Part shown: piece after piece, positions 1 to 37,290 of the stretch
How positions within the stretch are numbered: the first letter of the stretch is position 1
Layout: every line of letters starts with the position of its first letter
Virus record (IMG/VR): IMGVR_UViG_3300027141_000003
Coordinates: 1 to 64,000 of that record
Direction: 5' to 3' (one strand)
Origin: a virus
DNA length: 64,000 nt
The notes under the pieces: generated by a model
What the model saw: only the letters and a program-made list of their open reading frames with translations
What the model was told of the DNA's origin: nothing
The model's database searches: none
Made by a program: the position numbers and the translations under genes

Positions 1-29
1 TTTGGATTTACTGGCTAGTAATGTGAAAA

Positions 30-51
30 TGTCAGTGGGTTCGTGTATAAT
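30..51 (+). promoter_or_regulatory. PafBC-type (RecA-NDp) promoter TGTCAG-N10-TATAAT
   Basis: TGTCAG TGGGTTCGTG TATAAT, followed by the AACGAAAG leader and ORF 87. Confidence 0.8.
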
Positions 52-86
52 TCCATACATAACAACAAACGAAAGAAGGTCTGCCA

Positions 87-293
87 ATGGCTACCAAACT
101 ATACACAATCGAAAGCCTACTTGTAGGAAAAAACTATCGCTCAAACTCTCGCCACTTTTCAGGCGAAATTGTTTCTGCTGAACACCGCCCAGAAATTTGG
201 TATGGTGAAAAAACTGAAGCCTATCTAATCGAAATTCGTGCTGGTGGCTTGCGAAATAAATTTGCAACAATCGCAGTAAAGGTTGGTGAATAA
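87..293 (+). CDS. hypothetical early protein
   Basis: ORF with promoter and GAAGG RBS. Confidence 0.75.
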   Translation: MATKLYTIESLLVGKNYRSNSRHFSGEIVSAEHRPEIWYGEKTEAYLIEIRAGGLRNKFATIAVKVGE

Positions 294-295
294 TA

Positions 296-421
296 ATGGG
301 ATACATCGAAATTTTCCGAATGGACAACGAGGGTGCTGGCTGGGTAGATTTATCCGAAGCAACACCCGATGAATTATTCAACATCGAATTAGGATTATTA
401 GAGGAAGGTGCGTTCGAATGA
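296..421 (+). CDS. small acidic hypothetical protein (41 aa)
   Basis: MGYIEIFRMDNEGAGWVDL..., closely packed with its neighbours; below the ORF-track cutoff. Confidence 0.6.
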   Translation: MGYIEIFRMDNEGAGWVDLSEATPDELFNIELGLLEEGAFE

Positions 422-543
422 ACTTAGACGAATTCAAAAAACACGTGTTAGAAACACGTCAGGCAAGCAAGGCGGAAGCCTTGTCAGTGCTATCTGCTAC
501 AATTACAACTTCAACAAACGAAAGGGAAAACCTAAATGGCTAA
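418..543 (+). CDS. small hypothetical protein whose 3' end encodes the next promoter
   Basis: MNLDEFKKHVLETRQASKAEALSVLSATI...; ATGA overlap. Confidence 0.55.
   Translation: MNLDEFKKHVLETRQASKAEALSVLSATITTSTNERENLNG
482..503 (+). promoter_or_regulatory. PafBC-type promoter
   Basis: TGTCAG-N10-TACAAT. Confidence 0.75.
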
Positions 544-679
544 AATGAAACAACTACTTGATGAAATTATAAATTGCGATTTATGTAATGGTAAAGGCTG
601 GCAATTTTTTGGCAACGCTACTGAATACGATGTAGAGGCTTGCGAATGTAATCCTAATGAATTAGAGGTAAATTACTAA
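536..679 (+). CDS. small Cys-rich (zinc-finger-like) protein
   Basis: CDLCNGKG...CEC; AACGAAAGGG RBS. Confidence 0.6.
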   Translation: MAKMKQLLDEIINCDLCNGKGWQFFGNATEYDVEACECNPNELEVNY

Positions 680-807
680 TGAGCGAAATTGCTGGAATGT
701 GGATTTGCGATAATTGCGATACTCTCGCCATTGTGTCAGTGGAAACTGATACAATACTTGTAACACAATGTAAATGCGTAACTAACGAAAGGGAAACTAA
801 TGTATAA
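679..807 (+). CDS. small Cys-rich protein containing an embedded promoter
   Basis: CDNC...CKC; TAATG overlap. Confidence 0.55.
   Translation: MSEIAGMWICDNCDTLAIVSVETDTILVTQCKCVTNERETNV
734..755 (+). promoter_or_regulatory. PafBC-type promoter
   Basis: TGTCAG-N10-TACAAT. Confidence 0.75.
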
Positions 808-1003
808 AATAACTTGCGCCTATGATAGCAACGCTCCACACTGGTCTGCCGAATACGAAAACGAATTCGGTGCGTGGGAAAGTTTTTTCCGTTTTACCGA
901 TTGGGGAATGGCTAACGATTACTCAACTGTAAATATATCAACGCCAACTGGCAAAATGTATACAAAGGTTTTTTATCGTAGCGGAATGGTGGCAGTAAGA
1001 TGA
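800..1003 (+). CDS. hypothetical early protein
   Basis: ORF with AACGAAAGGG RBS. Confidence 0.7.
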   Translation: MYKITCAYDSNAPHWSAEYENEFGAWESFFRFTDWGMANDYSTVNISTPTGKMYTKVFYRSGMVAVR

Positions 1004-1191
1004 TGACCCGTAAAGATTATGTTGCAACCGCAGAAATTCTAAAGTATGCAAGCAATAAAATTCACCCCGCTGTTTTTTCTAAAGTCGTAAATGATTTCGC
1101 TGAAATGTTTGCAATTGATAATGAAAGATTTGATGTAAAACGATTTCACGAAGCGAGTGGATATAATGTTCCTAACTTCACTTCAAGATAA
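1000..1191 (+). CDS. hypothetical phage protein (MTRKDY...NERFD..RF type)
   Basis: ATGA overlap; motif common in small phage proteins. Confidence 0.7.
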   Translation: MMTRKDYVATAEILKYASNKIHPAVFSKVVNDFAEMFAIDNERFDVKRFHEASGYNVPNFTSR

Positions 1192-1297
1192 AGTAAAACG
1201 CATTCAGGAATTGCGTCGCAGTAATGCGGCGCAACCTGTTCGCAATAAAAAAAAATACACACGCAAAATAAAACATAAAAATAAATTTGATCAATAA
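1166..1297 (+). CDS. small basic protein with ArfA-like KKKYTRKIKHK motif
   Basis: MFLTSLQDKVKRIQELRRSNAAQPVRNKKKYTRKIKHKNKFDQ, translated by hand. Confidence 0.5.
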   Translation: MFLTSLQDKVKRIQELRRSNAAQPVRNKKKYTRKIKHKNKFDQ

Positions 1298-1315
1298 AAT
1301 TAATTTGTCGACAAA

Positions 1316-1375
1316 GCCCGCAGAGCTACGGGGTCGGGCGTGTCGTTACGGGTGTGATCTAAAACACCCTGAAAT
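1316..1375 (+). repeat. early-region fixed-geometry repeat, copy 1 of 9 (GCCCGCAG...GGG-N13-TTACG-N16-CCCTGAAAT)
   Basis: Other copies have TTACG-like blocks at 2334, 4215, 5520, 7377, 9923, 11143, 11192 and 11360. Confidence 0.8.
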
Positions 1376-1395
1376 CCTGCGTGTCAATTAGATAA

Positions 1396-1417
1396 TGTCG
1401 GTCCATTCTGTTATACT
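1396..1417 (+). promoter_or_regulatory. PafBC-type promoter
   Basis: TGTCGG-N10-TATACT. Confidence 0.8.
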
Positions 1418-1445
1418 TACAACCTTACCAACGAAAGGCCAACTA

Positions 1446-2165
1446 ATGAAATTGAAACGCTCTAATGATAGAAAGGTGGCTAACCTTGTCACAAAAAATG
1501 GAAAGCAAGCCGCAATTGCGAACACGTTCGGCCTACCTGCAGGAAAAGACTTTTCTTGTCCTGGTGCAACGTCTATCTGTGAGACTGTTTGCTACGCAGG
1601 CAAATTGGAAAAACTATATAAGGCAGTAAAGGCTAATCTTTTACACAACTGGGAATTGTTACGCAATGCAGACAATGACACAATGGTGCGCCTATTAGAT
1701 GAGATGATTGTTGATTTTGTTGCTGATTGTGATAAGAAGAATGCGCCTAAGTTATTCCGTATCCACTGGGACGGAGATTTCTTCAATGATACTTATACTT
1801 ATGCCTGGAAGACTGTTATCGAAAATCATTCCGATATTCAATTTTGGGTTTATACACGTGTAAAGTCTGCAGCGCTTATTCTAAAGGATGTATCTAATCT
1901 ATCTCTTTACTATTCCACCGACGATGAGAATAAAGAAATCGGTCACGAACTAAAAGTAAACGAAGGTATTCGCCTTGCTTACTTAGGCAAAACATTCGCC
2001 GTAACCGAAAGCACAATGAAAGAATTGACGGGCAAGCCTGGTGCAAAATGTCCTGAGAATATGAAATCAATTCCACTAATTAGCAATGCAGGTTCTGCTT
2101 GTGTATCTTGTGGCTTGTGTGTTTATGGTAAAGCAGACATTCGATTTAGCGCAACTAAAAAATAA
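1446..2165 (+). CDS. GP88-like phage protein (Cys-cluster, radical-SAM-related fold)
   Basis: CPGATSICETVCYA, FRIHWDGDF and C-terminal CP...CxxCxxC; start moved to the ATG after the RBS. Confidence 0.75.
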   Translation: MKLKRSNDRKVANLVTKNGKQAAIANTFGLPAGKDFSCPGATSICETVCYAGKLEKLYKAVKANLLHNWELLRNADNDTMVRLLDEMIVDFVADCDKKNAPKLFRIHWDGDFFNDTYTYAWKTVIENHSDIQFWVYTRVKSAALILKDVSNLSLYYSTDDENKEIGHELKVNEGIRLAYLGKTFAVTESTMKELTGKPGAKCPENMKSIPLISNAGSACVSCGLCVYGKADIRFSATKK

Positions 2166-2177
2166 GGAGAAATAAAA

Positions 2178-2300
2178 ATGGCCGAATTAAAATATTTAAA
2201 TGCGTTGCTAGCATCTGTTGTTGGTACTCCTGATCAAGCAAAAGCTGCAAAAGAATATTTAGCAGAAGTAGATCCCGACATATGGGGCCAGGAGGAGTAA
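2178..2300 (+). CDS. small hypothetical protein (40 aa)
   Basis: AAGGAG RBS; MAELKYLNALL... Confidence 0.55.
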   Translation: MAELKYLNALLASVVGTPDQAKAAKEYLAEVDPDIWGQEE

Positions 2301-2383
2301 AAGGCCCGCAGTACTGCGGGGTCGGGCGTGTCGTTAAGGATGTGATAATAATCACCCTGGAATTTTGGGCGGGTTGCCTAAAA

Positions 2384-2405
2384 TGTCAGTAGGATGTGTT
2401 ATACT
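2384..2405 (+). promoter_or_regulatory. PafBC-type promoter
   Basis: TGTCAG-N10-TATACT. Confidence 0.8.
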
Positions 2406-2433
2406 TCCATTATCCAACAACGAAAGGCTACAA

Positions 2434-2658
2434 ATGTCTAATCAAATTAAAGTTCCACACTCCGTAGTATTCGAGGCCATTATTGACCTTGATAAAATAC
2501 CTGCTAACTTACTTCCTGCATTACTAAAACTAAATGAAACAGATTTACTTACTATGTGTAAGGAAGCAACACTACACGCTCTTACTCAATCTAATTTATT
2601 GCAAACCGCTAATGAGTTTAATACTTGGGCTGAAGTAACTATCAAGGAAGGGGAATAA
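2434..2658 (+). CDS. hypothetical early protein
   Basis: Start follows the AACGAAAGG RBS. Confidence 0.7.
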   Translation: MSNQIKVPHSVVFEAIIDLDKIPANLLPALLKLNETDLLTMCKEATLHALTQSNLLQTANEFNTWAEVTIKEGE

Positions 2659-2660
2659 TA

Positions 2661-2930
2661 ATGGGAAGCATAACTGCATTAGGTATTCAAGATAGCGTGT
2701 TAGATTTAGAAACACAATTAGCCTATCACTTACAGGGTAATCATTACCCACCCGTTCCACTTTCTATGGTGCAACCTTGCATAGATGCTATTGACGCATA
2801 CTATGATGAGGATTTTGATCGACAGATAAAGATGCCTGAAGGCGTATCTTATAAAGGATTAGATACAGCACCTGCCTCCGCAATTATTGACCAACACCAC
2901 CTAGAGTTTTGGCTACCTGAGTGTGATTAG
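2661..2930 (+). CDS. hypothetical protein (HLQGNHYPPVP motif)
   Basis: ORF with RBS. Confidence 0.75.
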   Translation: MGSITALGIQDSVLDLETQLAYHLQGNHYPPVPLSMVQPCIDAIDAYYDEDFDRQIKMPEGVSYKGLDTAPASAIIDQHHLEFWLPECD

Positions 2931-2937
2931 TATCACA
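2922..2937. promoter_or_regulatory. CRP/GlxR-like box TGTGA-N6-TCACA (perfect)
   Basis: TGTGATTAGTATCACA. Confidence 0.65.
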
Positions 2938-2974
2938 CAATAACTTTCTCAAATAATGAGATACGGATACTAAA

Positions 2975-2996
2975 TGTCGGTGGTATCCGCTATAAT
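2975..2996 (+). promoter_or_regulatory. PafBC-type promoter
   Basis: TGTCGG-N10-TATAAT. Confidence 0.8.
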
Positions 2997-3025
2997 ACTA
3001 CTACCAACCAAACGAAAGGAAACAA

Positions 3026-3184
3026 ATGACAAACGCAACACTAGAGGTAGGCAAGTCCTACACAACCACTCAAAGTGGTATCACAGGAATAATCAAGTCG
3101 GTAGATACTCTGCCTAACGGCACAAGTCGTATCCTGCTTGATGTAGAAGGCAAGGAACGCTGGACAAGCGCAACTGCCAACTAA
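3026..3184 (+). CDS. small beta-barrel (SH3/KOW-like) protein
   Basis: MTNATLEVGKSYTTTQSGITGIIKSV...; strong RBS. Confidence 0.65.
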   Translation: MTNATLEVGKSYTTTQSGITGIIKSVDTLPNGTSRILLDVEGKERWTSATAN

Positions 3185-3289
3185 GGAGGCACACACCACT
3201 AATCGGGTGCTAAGCCACGAAACAGGGACAGTTTTGAGAGTGTTCTAGTCCAATGTCGTAAGTAAGAACTCTCCACCTTCGGGTGGAAA

Positions 3290-3311
3290 TGTCAGACCCC
3301 CCTGCTATACT
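3290..3311 (+). promoter_or_regulatory. PafBC-type promoter
   Basis: TGTCAG-N10-TATACT, preceded by a C(TTCG)G hairpin. Confidence 0.75.
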
Positions 3312-3346
3312 ATCCATAACAACAACCAACGAAAGGTAATAAATAA

Positions 3347-3763
3347 ATGAGCAGACAAATCACAGTAAAGGTCGCAACGACCAAAGTAATCAAGGCACTA
3401 GAAACTCGTCTAGCAACGCTAGAAAAAGACTATGCTTCACAAGAAGCAAAAGAAGCAAAGTTTCAGAAATCAGTAGAAGCGTGGCGCAAGGAAATTGGTA
3501 AGTGGGCTATTGCCAACTTCTCAAAGGCTGAGAACCTTCGCACAAACTATCGTGCTTGGAACAACACTCTCAATGTTGATTTTGACATTATCACAAAGGA
3601 AGGCAACTTCCCTACTGAACCTCAAAAAGATTTTGAGCAAATCCATCAGCACAGTTATCGTGAGATGAAAGAGGACATTACAAATGCTCTCACAATTCTC
3701 AAAATGACAGATGAGGAATTAGTCAATGCTTCTACAATGAAGCAGATTGCTAAGTATCTCTAA
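3347..3763 (+). CDS. hypothetical coiled-coil early protein
   Basis: ORF with promoter and RBS. Confidence 0.8.
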   Translation: MSRQITVKVATTKVIKALETRLATLEKDYASQEAKEAKFQKSVEAWRKEIGKWAIANFSKAENLRTNYRAWNNTLNVDFDIITKEGNFPTEPQKDFEQIHQHSYREMKEDITNALTILKMTDEELVNASTMKQIAKYL

Positions 3764-3811
3764 ATAGGTTTTGGGGGGTTAGCACACAAAGTCTAGACAC
3801 CTAAACCCAAA

Positions 3812-3838
3812 CAACCTGAGTAAGTTGCCAAACTGCTC
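3812..3838 (+). ncRNA. candidate 27-nt H-type pseudoknot, copy 1
   Basis: CAAC-CT-GAGTA-A-GTTG-CCAAAC-TGCTC; covarying copies at 5367 and 28962(-). Confidence 0.55.
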
Positions 3839-3850
3839 ACCCTTTGGGGC

Positions 3851-3880
3851 TAGACAAACTCTAACTCCAAATGCTATAAT
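3851..3880 (+). promoter_or_regulatory. sigma-A-type promoter
   Basis: TAGACA-N18-TATAAT with TG extension. Confidence 0.6.
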
Positions 3881-3907
3881 TAAAATCCCTACTAACAAAG
3901 GAACAAA

Positions 3908-4150
3908 ATGAAAAATCGTTATCGTGTAGAAATTTATGACGAAAACAAGTTAAATGATTTAACTATCTATTCTGAGCAAGGTGTCGATAAGGAATACTTA
4001 ACTGAATTAGTATTTTCTAATCTCCGCCGTTTTAACGGAACAATTCGTGCTTACGTTTATGATAATCTAAAGAAAAAGAAAATCACAGCGCTATTTTTAC
4101 CAGAAGAATTTATTCCCAAGAAAACAAACTTAACTAATCTAGTTGGCTAA
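3908..4150 (+). CDS. hypothetical protein
   Basis: ORF with AAAGGA RBS. Confidence 0.7.
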   Translation: MKNRYRVEIYDENKLNDLTIYSEQGVDKEYLTELVFSNLRRFNGTIRAYVYDNLKKKKITALFLPEEFIPKKTNLTNLVG

Positions 4151-4202
4151 AAAGTTGCAGCGATCTTCTCTTTCGCTGCAGCTGGCCCGCAGAGCTGCGG
4201 GG

Positions 4203-4232
4203 TTATCCACAGGGTTACGAGAGTTATCCACA
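4203..4232 (+). promoter_or_regulatory. two perfect DnaA boxes (TTATCCACA), 21 bp apart
   Basis: 4203-4211 and 4224-4232. Confidence 0.65.
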
Positions 4233-4245
4233 ATCCCTGGAAATT

Positions 4246-4261
4246 TGTGATAATGATCACA
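4246..4261. promoter_or_regulatory. CRP/GlxR-like box (perfect)
   Basis: TGTGATAATGATCACA. Confidence 0.65.
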
Positions 4262-4292
4262 TCACCCAATTCGGACATATTGTATCTAATCC

Positions 4293-4321
4293 TAGACAAT
4301 GTCAGTGGCAGATGTTATACT
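4293..4321 (+). promoter_or_regulatory. dual promoter: TAGACA -35 plus PafBC-type TGTCAG-N10-TATACT
   Basis: TAGACAATGTCAGTGGCAGATGTTATACT. Confidence 0.8.
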
Positions 4322-4350
4322 GAATCTAACAACCAATCGAAAGGAATAAA

Positions 4351-5358
4351 ATGGCTCATAATCTAGAAATGGAAAACGGCGAAGTTGCTTTTGCTCTTCG
4401 TGGTGCTCCTGCTTGGCACAATCTAGCAAATCGCATCTTTACAAAAGATGAGGAAGTTACAACTAGTCTAATGCTTGAAGAGGCAAAATTGGCTAATTGG
4501 AATGTTCGCTTATCACCATTGACTGACCACATTTCAGAATCTTGGAATGATGTATCTCAGGCATCTCTCGTCATTCGTGACAACCCATTCAACAAGGGAA
4601 TCGATGTTCTCGCAACTGTCGGCAAGCGTTACAAGCCTGTTCAGAATGAAGAATTGTTTGCATTCGCTGATGCAATTCACGATGCCAATGCTGATTGCCG
4701 TTGGGAATCTGCTGGCTCACTAAAAAAGGGTAAAGTTGTTTTCGGAACTGTGGACATTCCCCGCACAATGGTTCTTGACCCACAAGGCGCTAACGATGAG
4801 ACAAAACTTTATCTTATCGTATGGACATCACACGATGGTTCTGTTGCTGTTCAAGCAGCCGTTACACCTGTTCGTGTAGTATGCCAAAACACGCTAAACC
4901 TTGCAATGAAGAATGCTAAGCAATCTTTCAAGATTCGCCACACGCAATCTGTTGAAGGTCGCATTCAAGTTGCTCGTGAAACTCTTGGGCTTGCTCTTGG
5001 ATACTTTGATGAATTCGAAGTTCAAGCAAAAGCGCTTTACTCACAAGCAATCACCGATGCTGAATTCTCTAAGTTGATTCAGACAATCTATCCTAAGCCA
5101 GATAAAGATGCAGCAAAAGTTGCTCTTACTAAGTGGGAGAATAAGGTTGTTCTAATTGATGACCTTTATCATAACTCACCAACTAACGCTACAATCAAGG
5201 GAACTAAGTGGGGTGCGTTCAATGCACTAACTGAGCGCCTTGATTATTATCGTTCAGGTCGTGGCAATTCTGAAACACTAATGGCTGGTGCTTCAGGCTT
5301 TGACCCAATTCTCACCGCAGAAAAAAATAAGTTGTATCGAATGGTTGCAACTTTCTAA
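4351..5358 (+). CDS. DUF932/DUF945-family phage/plasmid protein
   Basis: MAHN..., AWH, YKPVQN, SHDGS, RVVCQNTL and TKWGAFNALTE motifs. Confidence 0.85.
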   Translation: MAHNLEMENGEVAFALRGAPAWHNLANRIFTKDEEVTTSLMLEEAKLANWNVRLSPLTDHISESWNDVSQASLVIRDNPFNKGIDVLATVGKRYKPVQNEELFAFADAIHDANADCRWESAGSLKKGKVVFGTVDIPRTMVLDPQGANDETKLYLIVWTSHDGSVAVQAAVTPVRVVCQNTLNLAMKNAKQSFKIRHTQSVEGRIQVARETLGLALGYFDEFEVQAKALYSQAITDAEFSKLIQTIYPKPDKDAAKVALTKWENKVVLIDDLYHNSPTNATIKGTKWGAFNALTERLDYYRSGRGNSETLMAGASGFDPILTAEKNKLYRMVATF

Positions 5359-5366
5359 ATAATAAA

Positions 5367-5393
5367 AATCCTAGGCACGATTTAAAACTGCCC
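5367..5393 (+). ncRNA. candidate pseudoknot, copy 2 (immediately 5' of tRNA-Asp)
   Basis: AATC-CT-AGGCA-C-GATT-TAAAAC-TGCC. Confidence 0.5.
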
Positions 5394-5397
5394 GCAA

Positions 5398-5471
5398 GAT
5401 CTCTTAGCTCAGTTGGTTAGAGCGCTACCCTGTCACGGTAGAGGTCACGGGTTCAAGTCCCGTAGGGGTCG
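5398..5471 (+). tRNA. tRNA-Asp (GTC)
   Basis: Cloverleaf: acceptor GATCTCT/AGGGGTC, anticodon arm CTACC-CTGTCAC-GGTAG, TTCAAGT T-loop; CCA not encoded. Confidence 0.92.
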
Positions 5472-5559
5472 CATCTCAAGATATGAGACGCCCGCAGACC
5501 TGAAGGCCAAATGTCCGTTTTACGGCTTTTATAAAAAAACCCCTGAAAGCTATTGTATA

Positions 5560-5581
5560 TGTCAGTGGGGCCTGGTACAAT
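5560..5581 (+). promoter_or_regulatory. PafBC-type promoter (leaderless, ATG 7 nt downstream)
   Basis: TGTCAG-N10-TACAAT-7nt-ATG. Confidence 0.75.
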
Positions 5582-5588
5582 TCTCTTT

Positions 5589-6254
5589 ATGACCAACGAA
5601 CTAGTATCAACTAAATATACATTTGCCTGTGACCCAGACGAATGCGATGTACTAATAGAACTAACATCATCTGACGGATTCGGATTCCCGTCGGGTGTGA
5701 CTGAAATCACTTGTCCGTGTGGCCGTAAGCCAGTCTTATTGTCAGTGGTCAATGCTACAATTGCTTCAACAACCCAAACGAAAGAGGAAAAAATGGAAGA
5801 GACAACAACACCTGCAGTAACAGTTCCTGATACATATAACCCTAATCTATTGGTAACTTACAAAGTTATCCGTGGTTACTCAGATGCTGAATATGCAACT
5901 GACAAGGTCACATCAATTGAATGGGACCTACACAATGCACGTCAAGCACAGAAGCACAATAGTGTTTACCAAGGCAAGATTGACACAGTCAAAGATATTA
6001 TCACTGAAGCATATGCTGATTCAGATGACCAAGAAACACTTCGTGCAATTGCTGAAGCGCTTTCAATTGAACTAATCAGAGAATTTGAATTTACCGCATC
6101 TATCGAGGTTAGCGGAACATATTCATATAACATTCTTGAAAATGATTATGACTTAGACCTTGAGTCAGAAGTTACAGATGCCCTCTTTGCTGATTCACAG
6201 AACGGTAACATTGAAATTACCGACCAAGAAGTATGCAACGTTAGTGAGCGCTAA
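5589..6254 (+). CDS. acidic hypothetical protein with N-terminal Cys motif; second in-frame start at 5793
   Basis: CDPDEC...CPCG N-terminus; internal promoter 5740-5761 and RBS before ATG 5793. Confidence 0.7.
   Translation: MTNELVSTKYTFACDPDECDVLIELTSSDGFGFPSGVTEITCPCGRKPVLLSVVNATIASTTQTKEEKMEETTTPAVTVPDTYNPNLLVTYKVIRGYSDAEYATDKVTSIEWDLHNARQAQKHNSVYQGKIDTVKDIITEAYADSDDQETLRAIAEALSIELIREFEFTASIEVSGTYSYNILENDYDLDLESEVTDALFADSQNGNIEITDQEVCNVSER
5740..5761 (+). promoter_or_regulatory. PafBC-type promoter inside a CDS
   Basis: TGTCAG-N10-TACAAT. Confidence 0.75.
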
Positions 6255-6466
6255 TGTACTTTGAGTTGACTGCTCCCGATAGGCTATCTATGGAGATGGC
6301 TTATTGGGATGCACAAATGATTGGGCTGGACCCAACTGCATTATCACCGTTGACATTCAACATCGGAACTGGTAGTATTGAGAAGGTGAGTCGCATTCGT
6401 GATAAGTATAACTTAATTGAAAGTTATACATCAGACTACGAGCCAACAGGATACACAAGGAGATAA
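6254..6466 (+). CDS. hypothetical protein
   Basis: TAATG coupling. Confidence 0.7.
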   Translation: MYFELTAPDRLSMEMAYWDAQMIGLDPTALSPLTFNIGTGSIEKVSRIRDKYNLIESYTSDYEPTGYTRR

Positions 6467-6467
6467 G

Positions 6468-6614
6468 ATGTCAGATTACAAAGATGGTTTTGATGACGGG
6501 TATAAATTTGCTCGTGAAGAGATTATGGAAAAGTTATCAGAGATTGATATCGCAGACATAGACTCTTGGATCTTAGACCGTCTTTCAGAAATGATCGAAG
6601 GTGGGAAACTATGA
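6468..6614 (+). CDS. small acidic hypothetical protein
   Basis: AGGAG RBS; MSDYKDGFDDGY. Confidence 0.65.
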   Translation: MSDYKDGFDDGYKFAREEIMEKLSEIDIADIDSWILDRLSEMIEGGKL

Positions 6615-6805
6615 TGGCTGAATGGCTTAAGTGTGATCAATGTGCAGCTCAGGCTATGTGGGAAGCTAAAAAGGATACAGCATCCCTTTATTTCTGTGGC
6701 CACCACAAAAATAAACAGGGCGAGCCACTTGTGGACTGGGCCCAAGAAATGATACAATTGCTTAACTACGAGCAAGAACAACAACTAGAAAAGGCGGAAA
6801 AGTAA
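6611..6805 (+). CDS. small zinc-binding protein (CxxC...FCGHH)
   Basis: Motif typical of small actinobacterial/actinophage proteins. Confidence 0.7.
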   Translation: MMAEWLKCDQCAAQAMWEAKKDTASLYFCGHHKNKQGEPLVDWAQEMIQLLNYEQEQQLEKAEK

Positions 6806-7209
6806 TGGGAGATAGAGCAAACTTCGTATTCGTGCAGCCAAACGGTCAATCGATTGTTTTGTACGGACACTGGGCTGGACATCAAATGCTACAACGTTTA
6901 GCAGAATCAGCAGTTAAGGCACAGGGCCGTTGGTCGGACCCTTCATATGCAACACGCATTACAATCAGCAATATGATTGGCGAAGGCTGGGCAATGGAGA
7001 CAGGCTGGGGATTATCTGTAAATGAAATTGCAGACAACGAGCACAAGATTCCTGTAATTGATTTTCAGCAACAGACATTTAGTCTTCACGAAGAGGCGCC
7101 GTATTCAGATGAATCTAATAAGATTCGTGGGATGAAGAATGAGGCAATCTTTACACAGGACCTAAGTAACTTCTGTGAGAAGTACTCAGACCAATTGGTT
7201 CGAGTATAA
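6805..7209 (+). CDS. hypothetical protein (MGDRAN...LYGHWAG)
   Basis: Coupled ORF. Confidence 0.8.
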   Translation: MGDRANFVFVQPNGQSIVLYGHWAGHQMLQRLAESAVKAQGRWSDPSYATRITISNMIGEGWAMETGWGLSVNEIADNEHKIPVIDFQQQTFSLHEEAPYSDESNKIRGMKNEAIFTQDLSNFCEKYSDQLVRV

Positions 7210-7244
7210 CTAATTAATCTAAAGGTGCCTCTATAGTCTTCGCA

Positions 7245-7342
7245 GGCCAGGGGTTAACTAAAGCATCGGATTTTACTTTCGTTGGTTACCGATAGCAGCC
7301 TTAGTAAAGAACCCTGGATCATTAACGTGTCCAGGGCTTTTT
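7245..7342 (+). ncRNA. candidate antisense sRNA/attenuator with loop complementary to the early-gene leader, followed by an intrinsic terminator
   Basis: Stem ATCGG/CCGAT encloses CTTTCGTTGGTT (reverse complement of AACCAACGAAAG); terminator CCCTGGA/TCCAGGG-CTTTTT. Confidence 0.55.
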
Positions 7343-7470
7343 GCTGCCCGCAACAGCTGAGGGGAATAAAGTCTATTTACGGATAACATATATAAATCCT
7401 GGAAATTGGACATATTGGACATATATCTATCTGATCATAGCTTTTGTGGTGTGAATCACACGATATTGCA

Positions 7471-7500
7471 TAGACAAATGTCAGTGGTCCATTATATAAT
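7471..7500 (+). promoter_or_regulatory. PafBC-type promoter with TAGACA -35
   Basis: TAGACAAA TGTCAG-N10-TATAAT. Confidence 0.8.
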
Positions 7501-7527
7501 TAGAACCTATCAACGAAAGGATATAAA

Positions 7528-8319
7528 ATGCCAAATTGGTGTTACAACACATTAACTATCCAAGGACCTAAGTCTGAGGTAGATATGATTAAAGATAGAT
7601 TGAATGCTCCATTTACATTAGCACAAGAGACATATGGTATGGGTGATATTAGTCTTTCAGGATTCCCCACCAAAATTGAACAGGTAAGTTATTCTAATCC
7701 TGTCTTTGCTTTCTTTAATATCCACTCATATAAAGATGAGGGAATTACTGATGAGGAATATGCCTGCCAGCCTTCTCGTGGTAACTATGATATACAAAAT
7801 GACCCTGATTGGTTCCGCAAGTCTGTTGAGTTCGCTAAGACTCAGAAGGATTGGTATTCTTGGAATAATTCTAATTGGGGAACTAAATGGGATGTAGCCG
7901 TCCGTGACGGTGATGAATATCCTGAAACAGAATTGCTTGAATATAAATCAGAAGGTGATGACAACTGGGTTATCTATAAGTATGAGACTGCTTGGTCACC
8001 TGCTGTAACTATCTTAACTAAACTATCTAATCTTGTTCCTAACTGCCTGCTTACTTTAGAGTTTGAGGAAGAGACAGGTTGGGGTGGGGAATATGAGATT
8101 GTTCGTGGTGAAGTAAAAGAACTAGTTGAATATGAAAATCGTTGTAATGAATGTGATTCATATGACACATTGTCTTATTGTGAGAATGACTGCGGTGAAT
8201 TCTGTTCTGAATGCGAGCACGGCTCTTGGAGAGACGAAGAGGCTATGAAAGAATGTCAGACCCATATGCTAACATTACCTATTAAGACCTACACACAGGA
8301 AGAGGCACTAAATGGCTAG
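7528..8319 (+). CDS. DUF1281/YubB ferredoxin-like domain protein
   Basis: MPNWCYN, WGTKWD and TAWSP motifs; Cys-rich C-terminus. Confidence 0.8.
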   Translation: MPNWCYNTLTIQGPKSEVDMIKDRLNAPFTLAQETYGMGDISLSGFPTKIEQVSYSNPVFAFFNIHSYKDEGITDEEYACQPSRGNYDIQNDPDWFRKSVEFAKTQKDWYSWNNSNWGTKWDVAVRDGDEYPETELLEYKSEGDDNWVIYKYETAWSPAVTILTKLSNLVPNCLLTLEFEEETGWGGEYEIVRGEVKELVEYENRCNECDSYDTLSYCENDCGEFCSECEHGSWRDEEAMKECQTHMLTLPIKTYTQEEALNG

Positions 8320-8536
8320 TTTCTTAGAAGATGTAAATCAAATGGTAATTGACGCTTGCTATCAAGATATAGCAGAACAATTACTTGAAGATTGGATTAA
8401 TAATAATCTTGACGAAGGGCAATATTATGCAGATAAGCAATTTGCTGAAATGTCAGGAGATAAGTTTGTTCAATCTGAATTTAATAAGTTCTATGAACTT
8501 AAAGAGGGAGATGAGGGTTACATTGACATACTATAA
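8312..8536 (+). CDS. acidic hypothetical protein
   Basis: Overlapping ORF. Confidence 0.7.
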   Translation: MASFLEDVNQMVIDACYQDIAEQLLEDWINNNLDEGQYYADKQFAEMSGDKFVQSEFNKFYELKEGDEGYIDIL

Positions 8537-8693
8537 CTTTGTAATTAGATTACACGGTGCAGTTGGCGCTAATAGCGAACAAGAAGCAATTGAGAAAATC
8601 AATGGACACTTAGATGACCTAGGTGATGTTGAAAGTATTATTAAGTATGACTTAGGTTGGCCTGAGACATCTTGGGAATTGGAGGAAGCATAA
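8523..8693 (+). CDS. hypothetical protein
   Basis: Probable TTG start after GAGGG. Confidence 0.55.
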   Translation: MTYYNFVIRLHGAVGANSEQEAIEKINGHLDDLGDVESIIKYDLGWPETSWELEEA

Positions 8694-8875
8694 TGTTAGG
8701 ATATACGGAATCTGATCTAAATAGGATGATTAATGCTATACACGATTCAAAGCTTTTTTATCTTAGGACCCCGTCAGATTTAATGGACAAGGAGCCTTTG
8801 AGGAAAGACTTGGAAGACGCTGTTAGTTTCTTGCAAGGTTTGTGGGCGGAGGGTTACTTTGACTACACAAACTAA
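8693..8875 (+). CDS. hypothetical protein
   Basis: GGAGG RBS; TAATG coupling. Confidence 0.65.
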   Translation: MLGYTESDLNRMINAIHDSKLFYLRTPSDLMDKEPLRKDLEDAVSFLQGLWAEGYFDYTN

Positions 8876-9044
8876 ATCTAGTAAGTTCATAGAGTATATG
8901 AAGATACATCTAATTAGTCTTAACCAGGACTTAGAGGGTGATTATAATGTTCAATCTAAGATTAATATCCAGGGACAAATTATGGCAACCGAACATTTAT
9001 TGTCAGTGGCGACTGATATAATGAATGAAAACGAAAGGGTCTAA
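8859..9044 (+). CDS. hypothetical protein with embedded promoter
   Basis: Ends ...LSVATDIMNENERV. Confidence 0.6.
   Translation: MTTQTKSSKFIEYMKIHLISLNQDLEGDYNVQSKINIQGQIMATEHLLSVATDIMNENERV
9001..9022 (+). promoter_or_regulatory. PafBC-type promoter
   Basis: TGTCAG-N10-TATAAT. Confidence 0.75.
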
Positions 9045-9045
9045 T

Positions 9046-9324
9046 ATGGAAACTCTATATAAGGATGATGAACTTCCTTTGCACCTCCAGCGTTTAGTTG
9101 ACGCAGGTGTTAATGGATTAGATATAATGCACGGCGAACTAAAGAATCTAATGTTGATTGCCGAAGAGCAATTGGCTTGGGCTCAGGCAATTGAAGATGA
9201 GACCGAAGAGGCAATGGATTCAATGGCACGTACAGAGGCGGAAGGACGACTAGATACTCTAGTTGAACTATATAAACTAACATATGCTTTATCATTTGCG
9301 ATTGGAGCACGTAATGAAGCCTGA
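9046..9324 (+). CDS. hypothetical protein
   Basis: AACGAAAGGG RBS. Confidence 0.7.
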   Translation: METLYKDDELPLHLQRLVDAGVNGLDIMHGELKNLMLIAEEQLAWAQAIEDETEEAMDSMARTEAEGRLDTLVELYKLTYALSFAIGARNEA

Positions 9325-9634
9325 AGATAAAGATAAACTAAACGAATGTTTGGCTATTCTAGATAAGACGGACCTAGGTCTATCCTTAGTTTGGCTATGG
9401 ACTTGGTCTACCATTAACAACATATTTGAGGATGAGACGTACAGGCAGAACTGCACCATAGATGAGATGTGGGACCACCTCTGTGAGGCTGTAGAGGCGG
9501 GCCAGGGCTTCTCTCTGGAGTACGGGGCAGAACAGCACAATGATGACGTCCTTGACTGGATGTTAAGCCGTGACTACATTGTTGACTCAATGTTTGAAGA
9601 AGAGGAAGAGGAGGAAGAAGATGAAGATGAGTGA
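9314..9634 (+). CDS. acidic hypothetical protein with poly-Glu tail
   Basis: Overlapping ORF. Confidence 0.7.
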   Translation: MKPEDKDKLNECLAILDKTDLGLSLVWLWTWSTINNIFEDETYRQNCTIDEMWDHLCEAVEAGQGFSLEYGAEQHNDDVLDWMLSRDYIVDSMFEEEEEEEEDEDE

Positions 9635-9914
9635 CACCTACATCAATGATCAGTTAAGTAAGGCCCAAGCTTTGTTATGGTCTGGATCTCTACACGAGGT
9701 AGACGAAGCACATAACATTGTATCTAATCTAATACAAGATAGGTTGGGCAATGAGTAAATATAAAGTAAAGATAGAGATAGTAGGGGGAGTCCCATATGT
9801 TCTTGAATGCCCACCTGAAGTAGATGTTGAGATTAAACAGGTTAATCATTGGCAGAGGTGGCGTGAACAACAAAAACTAATTAAAGATAAGTTGGTAAAG
9901 GAAGGAGGGCAAAA

Positions 9915-10148
9915 ATGACTCATTATGAGCCGAGCTTAGAAATCCTGGAAGTTGAGTATTCTTGTAGTCCAGGAGGAATTGATCTATTTGAAGTCTATGA
10001 TAAATCTGATATACCTTTATCTGTCCCAATATATGAGACAGAGAACTTGACCGATGCGGTCCTATTCTGTTACAATTTAGGTAAAGACTTTACTGTCAGG
10101 ACATTAGCGGAATGGAATGAAAGGGAGTTGGAGTATGCCTCTATATAG
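9915..10148 (+). CDS. hypothetical protein
   Basis: AAGGAGG RBS. Confidence 0.7.
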   Translation: MTHYEPSLEILEVEYSCSPGGIDLFEVYDKSDIPLSVPIYETENLTDAVLFCYNLGKDFTVRTLAEWNERELEYASI

Positions 10149-10335
10149 AGTGTTTGGTACCAAGTATAAAAACTACTACACAATTGTTTCGGCTGCCGAC
10201 GAATATCAAGCAGCGGAGATTGCAAACCTGCGTCCAGAAACTGATTGGGACGCAATTGTTACGGATGACGTCATTGAGGCGACAGACGTATTCTTAGATG
10301 AAGATACCGAGATAGATTTAAATCTCAACATATAG
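10135..10335 (+). CDS. acidic hypothetical protein
   Basis: Overlapping ORF. Confidence 0.65.
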   Translation: MPLYRVFGTKYKNYYTIVSAADEYQAAEIANLRPETDWDAIVTDDVIEATDVFLDEDTEIDLNLNI

Positions 10336-10346
10336 GCGGAAAGCTA

Positions 10347-10375
10347 TTTACAATTTCGTAAATAGTTGATATAAT
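10347..10375 (+). promoter_or_regulatory. sigma-A-type promoter
   Basis: TTTACA-N17-TATAAT. Confidence 0.65.
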
Positions 10376-10407
10376 AAATATAAACATCTCTTGAAAGGGG
10401 ATCTAAA

Positions 10408-10554
10408 ATGGCAACAAAGCGTGAATATCTAAAGTCACAAGGAATTACAGTTGGCCTACGTGGGCGCTTCTCAGCTGCAGCAGTAAAAGCTCTATCAGAT
10501 GCACAGACCAAGGGCATCACATTCGAGGCGGAAACAAAGTCAGCAAAGAAGTAA
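10408..10554 (+). CDS. Lsr2-like DNA-binding domain protein (48 aa)
   Basis: REYLKSQGITVGLRGRFSAAAV matches the Lsr2 C-terminal RGR AT-hook pattern. Confidence 0.65.
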   Translation: MATKREYLKSQGITVGLRGRFSAAAVKALSDAQTKGITFEAETKSAKK

Positions 10555-10589
10555 CTAATCTATTGTACGATCACGAGGGGCTGGCTAAA

Positions 10590-10611
10590 TGTCAGTCCTT
10601 CGTGCTATAAT
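10590..10611 (+). promoter_or_regulatory. PafBC-type promoter
   Basis: TGTCAG-N10-TATAAT. Confidence 0.75.
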
Positions 10612-10637
10612 CAAAGGTCATAGAGAAGAGGCGGAAT

Positions 10638-11048
10638 ATGAAAACCAAAGAAGAGCAAATCGGAGAACTTCTAGCAAATTCAGTAGAAGACCATTTCTTC
10701 AACCCTGCCGCTTTAGGCAGGTATCTAGCAGACCAACCGACATACACCTTAGACCGTGTTATGGAGGTAGTAGCGTGGGTTATAGAGAAGCAGGCAAGAC
10801 GATATGACCGAGAACTGGAAACGGGTGGGGCGATATCAGAAGGTCTTGCTATTGCTTCTAAGTTAGACTTAGTTATAGATAAGATAAGTCGGGAGAATGA
10901 ACTAAAGAATGTCAAATTGCCTATGACTCCAAATCAAAGGCGGGCGTTCATAAAGAGTCTCCCTAAAGAACAAGAACAATCATATAGATACTCTTGGCTA
11001 CACGAAACAAATAATCAATCTAATACATTTGTAAACCAGGGAATGTAA
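10638..11048 (+). CDS. hypothetical protein, last gene of the + block
   Basis: ORF after promoter. Confidence 0.75.
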   Translation: MKTKEEQIGELLANSVEDHFFNPAALGRYLADQPTYTLDRVMEVVAWVIEKQARRYDRELETGGAISEGLAIASKLDLVIDKISRENELKNVKLPMTPNQRRAFIKSLPKEQEQSYRYSWLHETNNQSNTFVNQGM

Positions 11049-11076
11049 ATCTAAATAGATCTAATATAGCCCAGAA

Positions 11077-11113
11077 TTATCCACAGGTTTATCCACAGCC
11101 TGTGGATTTTTTT
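11077..11113 (+). terminator. intrinsic terminator built from DnaA boxes
   Basis: ATCCACAGG/CCTGTGGAT stem plus T-run; TTATCCACA at 11077 and 11089. Confidence 0.65.
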
Positions 11114-11123
11114 GTGAAAAAAA

Positions 11124-11390
11124 TGTGGGCCGAATTTTCCATTTACGACACATGAAAAAAAGTCCCTGAAATTGTGGGCCATATATTCCATTTACGACGA
11201 GCTATAAAAAATCCCTCAAATTCTAGGAAAAAGTATATCTAATCTAATATAATGTATATGGAATCATAGAGAACATATAATGAATCTGGCATAATATACC
11301 CAGAATTGGTCAAAATTTTTCTATAGAAATCTATTGACAATGTGGGCCAAATATGCTATTTACGAGGCTATTGACAGGATCCCTGAAATA
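11124..11390 (+). repeat. three copies of TGTGGGCC...TTACG-N16-CCCTGAAAT in the non-coding junction
   Basis: Copies starting about 11124, 11173 and 11341. Confidence 0.8.
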
Positions 11391-11720
11391 TGATAGGCAT
11401 ATGGGGTCTATGTGGAGCAAAATGGATTAAAATGGGGGCTTATGGAGCCCTGCCCAATTACACATATAACTAAATAGATATAATATAATAGTAATTGCTA
11501 TAGAATTAGTAGTAATTATTCTGGTAGATCATCTCTAGAATATGCCAAATAAGGCTCTAGGAGGCTATATGAGAGGTGTTTAAATGCGGGGGGGATATAG
11601 GAGTGCTCTACTTGCAGATACTGCAATTCCTTGAGCGATATAGCTCCACTAGTGAGGATACTATGGCAATGGCTGATATACCTAACATTAGATAGATCCA
11701 GTATACGTACCAGATAGCCA

Positions 11721-11909
11721 TTATTTACACAACATACAGTAGAAAGGATTTCTCATATGATCTTTATGGATCACAAGGGTCTGAGCACATTTAGAGCATA
11801 CAGCATCTATATAATCTGTCTCTCTTTTGGGTATATTGACCTTTGGGTTTCTTGTATAGTATAGCTTGGTTATATACCATGTAATGGCTATTAGTAGTAG
11901 TTCTATCAT
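11721..11909 (-). CDS. membrane-anchored zinc-finger protein
   Basis: N-terminal hydrophobic segment; CxxC...CxxC. Confidence 0.6.
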   Translation of the reverse strand: MIELLLIAITWYITKLYYTRNPKVNIPKRETDYIDAVCSKCAQTLVIHKDHMRNPFYCMLCK

Positions 11910-29548: not shown

Positions 29549-29896
29549 CTAGTCGTTTGGAATATCTTTATTAAATTCCATTTCGATTAAACCTTTTTCT
29601 TTAGCTATTTTTTGACCTTCTGGACTAATATGAAAAGTTGCCTCTAGGTTCTCATCGTATTCAACTTCAACCAAGCCCTGCTCATACAGTTCAATCAAAG
29701 ACCTATCTACATATTCAGTATGAGATTGCCACAATTCTGGAGCTAAAGTCTCTGCGTCTTCGCTAATAGAATAAATAAGCTCTCCGCTTTCATCTACGCC
29801 CTCTAAACTAACGGCACCTATTTCTATATAATACGCCAGTCTATCTGAGTCATGCTGATCTTCTTCTTCTGTCATATTGCCTCCCCTGTGCAACAA
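29549..29896 (-). CDS. acidic winged-helix-like hypothetical protein
   Basis: ORF track; true start probably MTEEE, since the annotated start overlaps the tRNA. Confidence 0.65.
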   Translation of the reverse strand: MLHRGGNMTEEEDQHDSDRLAYYIEIGAVSLEGVDESGELIYSISEDAETLAPELWQSHTEYVDRSLIELYEQGLVEVEYDENLEATFHISPEGQKIAKEKGLIEMEFNKDIPND

Positions 29897-29962
29897 GTAG
29901 GACTTGAACCTACGATTACCGAATTATGAGTTCGGGGCTTTAACCAACTAAGCTATTGTTGC
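29889..29962 (-). tRNA. tRNA with CAT anticodon (elongator Met or Ile2)
   Basis: GCAACAA/TTGTTGC acceptor, CCGAA-CTCATAA-TTCGG, GTAGG-TTCAAGT-CCTAC; own TATAAT upstream. Confidence 0.9.
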
Positions 29963-36601: not shown

Positions 36602-37147
36602 TTACCTCTTATTTAGTGTTGCAATAAAATGATCATCAATAGGGCTATTGGGATCTCTTGAATATTCTATCGTATCAATTATAAAATATTTTTCTACAAT
36701 TGGCAATACCTGTGAAGCTGAATGATCAATCCATGTTCTGCTATGAAGAACTAATCTGTCCACTATCTGAGACAAGTCATTTAGGTATGAATCTAACTCT
36801 GAATCTTCAATATGCTGAAATACAAGACTTGCCAGTACTATATCAAATTTAAATTCTTTAACATACTCCCAGTCTGTTGTATATGATATGTTACTTAGTT
36901 TATTTTCTTGTGGAACTAAATCAATCATGCTGGGAAGATCAAAGGATATTACCTTGCCGTATGTCTCTGCAAGTGCTACCGAGTTTCTTCCAACACCACA
37001 ACCAAAGTCTAGAGCAATAGATCCGTTTCCAAATAAAGACTTAACTTCATTGTACACTGGCATGTCTTTAAACGGACCAACATATCCAGTAAGAATAAGG
37101 TCTCCAGCAGTTTCTTCGTTAGCCTCTAACCATATGTCCTTGCTCAT
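36602..37147 (-). CDS. class I SAM-dependent methyltransferase
   Basis: LDFGCGVGR; FDIVLASLVFQHI. Confidence 0.85.
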   Translation of the reverse strand: MSKDIWLEANEETAGDLILTGYVGPFKDMPVYNEVKSLFGNGSIALDFGCGVGRNSVALAETYGKVISFDLPSMIDLVPQENKLSNISYTTDWEYVKEFKFDIVLASLVFQHIEDSELDSYLNDLSQIVDRLVLHSRTWIDHSASQVLPIVEKYFIIDTIEYSRDPNSPIDDHFIATLNKR

Positions 37148-37290
37148 CGTTTTTTAACCAACCCAAACTTGTCTAATGCTCTCTGTATAGTCATAGCAGA
37201 AACCTTACACTCTTCGGCAATTTCAGTTACCGTTTTCTTTTGAACAACATATCTTCTATACATCCAGGTCTGGCTTTGATATAGTTTCAT
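37144..37290 (-). CDS. small HTH DNA-binding protein
   Basis: KTVTEIAEECKVSAMTIQRAL, translated by hand. Confidence 0.65.
   Translation of the reverse strand: MKLYQSQTWMYRRYVVQKKTVTEIAEECKVSAMTIQRALDKFGLVKKR

Follow-up and report, generated by a model that had tools for sequence, protein, structure and literature searches.

We were curious to know how the plus-strand gene block at the left end of the viral genome IMGVR_UViG_3300027141_000003 is controlled, as an earlier note had described its intergenic spaces as repeats of one layout (a fixed-geometry element with boxes resembling transcription factor sites, a PafBC-type promoter and a shared leader, the reverse complement of which is displayed by one hairpin) and had read them as a host-state sensor with an RNA off-switch. 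The window analysed comprises bases 1-64000 of this 109,912-bp IMG/VR record (about 39% G+C), and the genome ends are 127-bp direct terminal repeats. The block, which the note had placed at 1-11400, is real but starts outside these limits, at 108.3 kb: it runs from a divergent gap at about 108.2-108.4 kb across the terminal repeat to 11048, where it meets the 3' ends of minus-strand genes. The window encodes WhiB and an Lsr2-like DNA-binding domain, GP88-family and DUF932 proteins in the plus-strand block, and the replication proteins DnaE, DnaB, primase and RecA, with DnaE being 55-57% identical to its counterparts in Streptomyces phages of the Stanwilliamsviridae. Judged by WhiB, the Lsr2-like, GP88 and DUF932 proteins and the likeness of DnaE to that of Streptomyces phages, the phage is an actinophage, and the block is probably the early region of a lytic-type freshwater actinophage. 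On balance, we consider it probable that the early cassettes of this block are fired via a PafBC-type activator of the host, assisted by CRP/DnaA-type boxes, and damped by an anti-leader RNA.

This reading starts from the promoters. The motif TGTC[A/G]G-N10-TAnnnT occurs 14 times on the plus strand of 1-11400 and never on its minus strand, compared with 0.09 copies in 500 dinucleotide shuffles of the same 11,400 bases, which served as the background for all enrichments given here. The genome holds 16 copies, 14 within 1-10.6 kb plus those at 108376 and 108765, along with the right-hand terminal-repeat copy, and a looser scan (6-10 nt spacing) returned three weak matches in the rest of the genome. 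Among the relatives, which were tallied in the best 80 of the 290 viral contigs retrieved with the DUF932 protein, the motif lies 1152 times on the plus strand and three times on the minus strand. The TGTC[A/G]G element, located at -28 to -23, is invariant in the 16 genome copies and in 671 distinct copies from the window and its relatives, and the N10 spacing is kept in 541 of 568 TGTCRG contexts that have a -10-like hexamer 5-16 nt downstream, N9 and N11 not occurring at all. In the logo of the 671 distinct copies, the -35 region (-36 to -31) carries no information (at most 0.12 bits at -36 to -32), the stretch directly upstream of TGTCAG is A/T-rich, and the -10 reads TAtAAT, frequently with a TGn extension (T in 68%, G in 79%).

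PafBC is present constitutively and is activated by single-stranded DNA. Its published in vivo motif, tGTCgg(N10)tA(N3)T, consists of a -26 element and a SigA -10 without a -35, and in the mechanism of sigma adaptation PafBC bridges sigma region 4 to the -26 element (PMC8635444, PMC11804915). The phage promoters share with these PafBC (RecA-NDp) promoters the TGTCRG at -28 to -23, the spacing of exactly N10, the TAnnnT -10 and the absence of a -35, so that the motif assignment proposed in the earlier note is supported, and even the GTG flank of the older RecA-NDp consensus is present in nine of the 14 window copies. In contrast to the PafBC promoters of Actinobacteria, the phage sites number about 16 per genome and drive small open reading frames (ORFs) instead of repair genes, strongly prefer A at -24, and often carry the TGn-extended -10. 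A literature search returned no paper connecting PafBC or RecA-NDp promoters with phage promoters.

The messages made from these promoters would share a leader. On the plus strand, AACGAAAG is found ten times in 1-11400, compared with 0.33 in the shuffles, and AACGAAAG(G) stands directly before the start codon behind about 60% of the promoters. Among 666 distinct promoter-downstream regions, AACGAAAG is exact in 60% and present with at most one mismatch in 74%, its usual place being 10-16 nt past the -10, with the start codon 7-11 nt further on. The word holds the Shine-Dalgarno core GAAAGG, and its conservation reaches 4 nt further 5'. The first cistron of most units is preceded by a short A/C-rich leader, where the conserved word AACGAAAGG contains the Shine-Dalgarno sequence, and internal cistrons use other ribosome-binding sites. 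In the relatives, 768 copies of AACGAAAG are on the plus strand and 78 on the minus strand, that is, about one reverse copy per contig.

Within the block, the single reverse-complement copy of the leader lies at 7276-7283, in a hairpin loop as the earlier note had it, and this hairpin proved to be part of a covarying structured RNA. The RNA is 80 nt long (7222-7301, plus strand), and its fold, derived from a 31-variant alignment, comprises a closing stem P0, a hairpin P1, a conserved junction and a hairpin P2, the loop of which (7275-7287) is antisense to the leader (AA)CCAACGAAAG. An intrinsic terminator with a 7-bp G+C stem followed by a T run (7312-7342, plus strand) lies downstream of the RNA in the window and likewise in most relatives. 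The covariance model recognises the RNA once in this genome and also, again as a single copy, in each of 55 other contigs. Across 39 distinct rows, 94% of the cells are paired and the covariation score is 0.328, compared with 0.113 in shuffles, none of 500 of which reached it, while slid partners stay at or below 0.077; both sides have changed in seven pairs, with GC/CG/AU exchange in P1 and changes also in P0 and P2. The 39-row alignment was fitted to the model and therefore leans towards the structure, while an independent MAFFT alignment has the same exchanges. In Rfam, including the C4 antisense RNA RF01695, cmscan up to an E-value of 10 yielded terminator-like noise and no hit at the gathering thresholds; a tRNA-like molecule was likewise rejected. 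By these comparative data, the RNA is a new covariation-supported family without an Rfam match.

The P2 loop displays CUUUCGUU(GG), of which the word CUUUCGUU is invariant in the 39 distinct variants, and it is complementary to the AACGAAAG of that 60% of the 666 distinct leaders. The 4-nt 5' extension of the Shine-Dalgarno core in the leader is exactly the part that is matched by the loop. Predicted loop-leader duplexes reach -10 kcal/mol or lower for 13 of 17 early leaders (the terminal-repeat promoter being counted at both ends), compared with a mean of -7.3 for 97 other gene starts, and two leaders match the loop over 11-12 nt. Moreover, in a lineage whose loop reads ..CGUUCC, two leaders carry GAACGAAAGG, with a G that is otherwise almost absent at that place; the independent events are few, and we take this as a hint of loop-leader covariation. 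Upstream of the RNA there are only AT-rich -10-like hexamers. The transcript from the promoter at 5560 is probably leaderless, since its ATG lies only 7 nt past the -10, and the first codons of this message (ACCAACGAA, within 5560-5592) are likewise complementary to the RNA loop.

Besides PafBC-type promoters and leaders, the earlier note had listed CRP-like, DnaA-like and GACAC boxes. The first two are enriched over the shuffles, constrained in position and conserved in relatives, which makes them candidate binding sites. The palindrome TGTGA-N6-TCACA occurs twice in 1-11400 compared with 0.03 in the shuffles (2922-2937, 53 nt upstream of the promoter at 2975, and 4246-4261, 54 nt upstream of that at 4300); all five perfect copies in the genome are in the early block and none elsewhere in the 110 kb, and near-perfect palindromes precede four further promoters. 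Measured from TGTC, the offsets in this genome are 43-45 nt at four promoters, 53-54 nt at three and 64 nt at one. The relatives contain 481 perfect palindromes, and 286 of 293 distinct ones are followed by a promoter at a distance of 34-86 nt, the favored distances being 44, 54, 64/65, 75 and 86 nt; in the 214 distinct TGTGA-N6-TCACA sites, the symmetry extends one base into the spacer (positions 6 and 11). A periodicity of about 10.5 bp argues that the bound protein is required to face the polymerase, and these CRP/GlxR-type palindromes, found at about half of the promoters, are therefore probably face-dependent co-activator sites. The phage promoters are like class I CRP/GlxR-activated promoters in having TGTGA-N6-TCACA upstream at whole-helical-turn spacing, whereas their inferred centres (about -64.5, -74.5, -85 and -95.5) differ by about 3 bp from those in Escherichia coli, a subset is half a turn off, the partner promoter is PafBC-type, and the binding protein is a candidate only.

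The DnaA-like 9-mer TTATCCACA occurs four times in 1-11400 (0.13 in the shuffles), in two pairs, one at 4203/4224 upstream of the DUF932 gene and one at 11077/11089, which supplies the stem of the block's final terminator. Of the two boxes before DUF932, the first does not vary, whereas the second is a direct copy in part of the relatives but inverted in others, its position being unchanged, which argues for selection on the box itself. A further 9-mer, GGCGTGTCG, has six copies in the genome, every one of them in early intergenic DNA (1337 and 2325, and genome positions 108748, 109622, 109672 and 109715), and recurs in relatives in both orientations. We also observed a recurring box, GGACATWTTG, between the fixed-geometry element and the promoter (4273, 7408-7425 with a tandem at 7408, and genome position 109740). 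GACAC, by contrast, is not enriched in 1-11400 (14 compared with 15.2 in the shuffles), so that the WhiA input falls away. The idea that each operon listens to a different input is only weakly reflected in these data: all operons are of the PafBC type, about half also have a CRP-like box, and DnaA-like boxes are limited to one promoter and the convergent gap at the end of the block. That the boxes act as decoys for host factors appears less likely, because all sites are placed, relative to a leader and start codon, as promoter elements would be.

The fixed-geometry element TTACG..CCTSRAA is itself found seven times in 1-11400, compared with 0.02 in the shuffles. Its full layout is a hairpin-like GCCCNCA..TGNGGGG, 12 nt, TTACGR, 16-17 nt and CCCTGRAAT, and the two spacers house GGCGTGTCG, CRP-like or DnaA-like boxes. 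There are 341 distinct copies, always in plus orientation (335 compared with 0). The element always stands where a transcription unit ends, be it behind a stop codon, the tRNA-Asp or the RNA terminator, and its distance to the next promoter is variable. The modular layout claimed for all intergenic spaces thus holds in part: its components are all present far above chance, but the full module of repeat, boxes, promoter and leader is limited to six larger gaps (109.6 kb-86, 1298-1445, 2301-2433, 4151-4350, 5473-5588 and 7346-7527), and the other promoters, which have no repeat, overlap the 3' ends of the ORFs before them. Single copies on the plus strand are located at 1316-1375 (hairpin, GGCGTGTCG, TTACGG, a spacer with a CRP-like half-palindrome, and CCCTGAAAT), 2304-2363 (spacers with the GGCGTGTCG box and a CRP-like box at 2341-2356), 4185-4244 (one TTATCCACA DnaA box in each spacer, 4203-4211 and 4224-4232) and 7346-7405 (directly after the RNA terminator), and a degenerate one at 5490-5549 follows the tRNA-Asp gene. 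The element was also considered as a promoter. A SigA promoter was rejected, since, in spite of a TTACGA-to-TGRAAT spacing of 17-18 nt, there is a G at -11; the phage does not encode a giant virion RNA polymerase, which rules out a hairpin promoter of the N4 type. To our knowledge, it fits no ECF, SigF, WhiG or sigma-54 consensus.

The convergent gap (11048-11721) that closes the block contains the terminator hairpin (11077-11113, plus strand), built of the two TTATCCACA boxes and an inverted copy and followed by T7, the right half of the element in three iteron-like copies (11118-11389, plus strand; TGTGGGCC..TTTACGA-N16-CCCTSAAAT) and AT-rich DNA. The gap is also the site of the peak in cumulative GC skew, and it may be a replication origin.

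All 14 PafBC-type promoters of the window are on the plus strand. The first, TGTCAG-N10-TATAAT at 30-51, lies partly in the terminal repeat and has a CRP-like palindrome 64 nt upstream, at the right end of the genome; those at 482-503 and 734-755 are inside the 3' ends of the upstream ORFs. The promoter at 1396-1417 serves the GP88-family gene (1446-2165) and is followed by promoters at 2384-2405, 2975-2996 and 3290-3311, the last of which has a leader matching the RNA loop over 12 nt. The DUF932 gene (4351-5358) is served by 4300-4321, in a module that is kept in 56 distinct upstream sequences. Further downstream are 5560-5581 (ATG at 5589), 5740-5761 (within an ORF, with an in-frame start at 5793), 7479-7500 (serving the DUF1281_C gene 7528-8319), 8254-8275 (with the weaker -10 TAACAT and without the AACGAAAG leader), 9001-9022 and 10590-10611, which serves the last plus-strand gene (10638-11048). 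Two canonical promoters are interspersed on the same strand: a SigA-like TAGACA-N18-TGcTATAAT at 3851-3880, which has no TGTCAG and lies upstream of the ORF 3908-4150, and an extended -10 promoter, TTTACA-N17-TGATATAAT, at 10347-10375, which serves the ORF 10408-10554. The product of the latter ORF is 48 aa long and consists of the Lsr2-like DNA-binding domain (phrog_6269).

The genes behind the promoters are far less constant than the promoters themselves. In the best 80 related contigs, with about 14 promoters per contig, the first ORFs fall into 62 protein families, only about six of which are nearly universal, and the upstream module of DUF932 is kept behind at least eight different, unrelated upstream sequences. 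Boxes are hence conserved while genes turn over, as the earlier note had asked to see, and the cassettes behave as mobile promoter/terminator modules with genes being swapped between them. In this respect they are reminiscent of the PeSLs of T4-like phages, composite terminator/early-promoter cassettes (PMC2839356, PMC4122927), in which a repeated stem-loop and an early promoter also lie between small variable ORFs and genes are exchanged between relatives at the modules. The sequences and the host phylum are unrelated to those of PeSLs, and the present cassette adds the three-anchor fixed-geometry element, the boxes resembling transcription factor sites and the common translated-leader word.

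We therefore favor the following scheme, in the conditional. Host RNA polymerase-SigA, together with host PafBC or a like factor, would fire all early operons, and the PafBC-type architecture would be read by this polymerase only with PafBC as a link between sigma region 4 and the -26 element. A CRP-type protein would modulate transcription from the helically phased upstream sites, and the DnaA-type boxes would modulate one promoter, that of DUF932. If the RNA is expressed, its loop would pair with the leaders across the Shine-Dalgarno sequence, and as it accumulates, it would lower the translation of promoter-proximal early genes. The cassettes may double as recombination modules, like PeSLs. 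In such a scheme, the block could serve as the host-state sensor, and the RNA as the off-switch, that the earlier note had envisaged, both being interpretations of sequence. A bolder version, in which a globally abundant clade of lake actinophages has its whole early programme wired to the single-stranded DNA alarm of the host, with PafBC, switched on by phage DNA as it enters or replicates, firing about 16 promoters, CRP-cAMP tuning them and the new-family RNA closing them, is put forward tentatively, and we regard it as possible but not probable.

Several observations weigh against the favored scheme. A TGn-extended -10 could let SigA fire the promoters without an activator, it could be the canonical promoters at 3851 and 10347 that are truly immediate-early, and the Streptomyces phages BillNye and Samisti12 do not have the TGTCRG class although their hosts have PafBC. 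A host with pafBC, crp and a DnaA preference of the TTATCCACA type is presumed, and a minority class of CRP-like palindromes at 49 nt is half a turn off phase. As for the RNA, it is no more stable than shuffles (folding z-score about 0), the support for it being comparative only; no promoter could be pinned down for it, chance alone would produce an 8-mer complement about once in 65 kb, and in Samisti12 a weak homologue of its scaffold displays a loop without the anti-leader word.

Some of these points would be accommodated if TGTCAG were read by a phage-encoded or virion-delivered factor in the manner of T4 MotA/AsiA, which would make the block delayed-early, following the canonical promoters 3851/10347 or the entry of an injected protein. 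We think this unlikely. A box in place of the -35 is the design of T4 middle promoters too, where a box about 30 bp upstream replaces the -35, a parallel discussed in the PafBC paper; the two canonical promoters within the block and the missing motif in the cultured Streptomyces relatives also fit such a factor, which could have escaped recognition, as most early ORFs are without known function. On the other hand, core, spacing and even the flanking GTG are exactly those of the RecA-NDp/PafBC motif, and the promoters nearest the genome end and at the divergent start of the block are already PafBC-type. The only recognisable DNA-binding domains are the Lsr2-like protein, WhiB and, in the other block, a helix-turn-helix protein; domain searches found no WYL, Crp-type helix-turn-helix or DnaA C-terminal domain encoded by the phage, and a screen of 20 early ORFs returned no recognisable regulator besides the Lsr2-like protein. 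While the phage promoters resemble T4 middle promoters (MotA box at -30) in that the -35 gives way to an upstream box set at a constant distance to a normal -10, the T4 factors are phage-encoded and remodel sigma region 4, whereas the phage studied here has no recognisable factor of its own for a box that is identical with the site of a host activator. The helix-turn-helix protein (37144-37290, minus strand) is 48 aa long and has a weak match to sigma-70 region 4; it could be a candidate phage regulator of one of the palindromic boxes. Even less probable, in our estimation, is that these are constitutive extended -10 SigA promoters in which TGTCAG, leader and repeat have been kept mainly by PeSL-like copying and recombination of cassettes. 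The frequent TG of the extended -10, the exchange of 62 gene families behind the same cassette and the composite terminator/promoter layout resembling T4-type PeSLs are what such copying would leave behind, yet spacer and flanks have diverged freely while TGTCAG and N10 are unvarying in 671 distinct copies. Together with the CRP-like boxes, which keep helical phase at five distances, and the DnaA boxes, which survive an orientation flip, this argues for selection on individual sites, beyond cassette homology.

A separate possibility concerns the RNA alone, which may be a real structured RNA with another role, as a 3' stabiliser for the operon upstream of it, a protein-binding or decoy RNA, or a scaffold with a different target, so that its CUUUC-containing loop would resemble an anti-Shine-Dalgarno sequence by coincidence. 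The folding z-score near zero, the undefined promoter, the shortness of an 8-nt complement and the possible Samisti12 homologue with its different loop are all compatible with this, and we consider it quite possible, albeit not probable. What speaks for the anti-leader role instead is that the loop is the sole invariant single-stranded stretch while the three stems covary, that the complementarity covers AAC(G), which is not part of the Shine-Dalgarno sequence and is equally conserved in the leaders, and that two leaders are matched perfectly over 11-12 nt; the hint of loop-leader covariation in one lineage points in the same direction.

Precedents exist for a shut-off of the proposed kind. 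The T4 endoribonuclease RegB and the repressor RegA are proteins that shut off many early messages post-transcriptionally; the likeness lies in early shut-off via a shared feature of ribosome-binding sites, the difference in that the effector proposed here is an RNA. The c4 antisense RNA of phages P1 and P7 (Citron and Schuster, 1990, cited in PMC8198154) is a small structured phage RNA with short recognition words in its loops, which are complementary to ribosome-binding regions of phage mRNAs, and it represses these mRNAs; the RNA described here, a structured phage RNA with such a loop, may by analogy do the same. The CI RNA of phage P4 is an RNA of this kind, too. While c4 controls one immunity operon in temperate phages of Proteobacteria, the present RNA has no Rfam C4 match and differs in sequence and fold, and its candidate targets are a dozen dispersed early leaders of a large actinophage.

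Cultured relatives offer a partial comparison, and searches found no near-identical cultured phage. The TGTCRG promoter class is absent from BillNye and Samisti12. In Samisti12 (NC_042012.1, 1-9700, minus strand), the terminal-repeat genes stand behind TAGACA-N17/18-TAGACT promoters and share an (A/T)CGAAAGGG word near the 5' end of the message, the same leader core as in the window phage; as this core is common to both despite different promoters, it would be older than the promoter type. At 777-837 (minus strand) of the same genome, the RNA model finds a weak match (23.9 bits) with the same P0/P1/junction/P2 layout, the loop of which, AAGGUCGG, is non-anti-leader, and upstream of which lies a TTGACA-N17-TAACAT promoter. 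This may be a distant homologue of the RNA scaffold.

Searches for the host were made with several proteins: a WhiB search of genome contigs gave only an irrelevant 16-residue match in a metagenome-assembled genome of Gemmatimonadaceae, and searches of a protein atlas and for RecA homologues returned phage relatives only. The phage group is very abundant in lake metagenomes, where the DUF932 protein retrieves the 290 related viral contigs and another gene more than 3,700 relatives. Other features of the window include a tRNA-Asp (GTC) gene within the early block (5398-5472), a tRNA-Met (CAT) gene in the minus block (29888-29962) and, at 33141-35693 on the minus strand, an 850-aa fusion of a HAD hydrolase, a nucleotidyl transferase and a GT61 glycosyltransferase, which may play a role in DNA or cell-surface sugar modification.

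To the best of our knowledge, DNA-damage genes of the host are the only setting in which PafBC and sigma adaptation have been described, and WYL-type sensors of single-stranded DNA also control anti-phage defence. If the bolder version is true, it would be without precedent in two respects, as a phage regulon that relies on sigma adaptation and as a case of early shut-off by a multi-target anti-leader small RNA. In a phage that borrows this switch for all its early genes, a host alarm would have been turned into a viral ignition key, which bears on the exploitation of WYL-type single-stranded DNA sensors. The RNA family would offer a simple target rule, and the compact promoter-leader cassette could become a damage-inducible expression part for actinobacteria. 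Since the likely hosts are dominant, hard-to-grow freshwater Actinobacteria of low GC content, the regulatory logic of these phages may also be relevant to carbon turnover in lakes.

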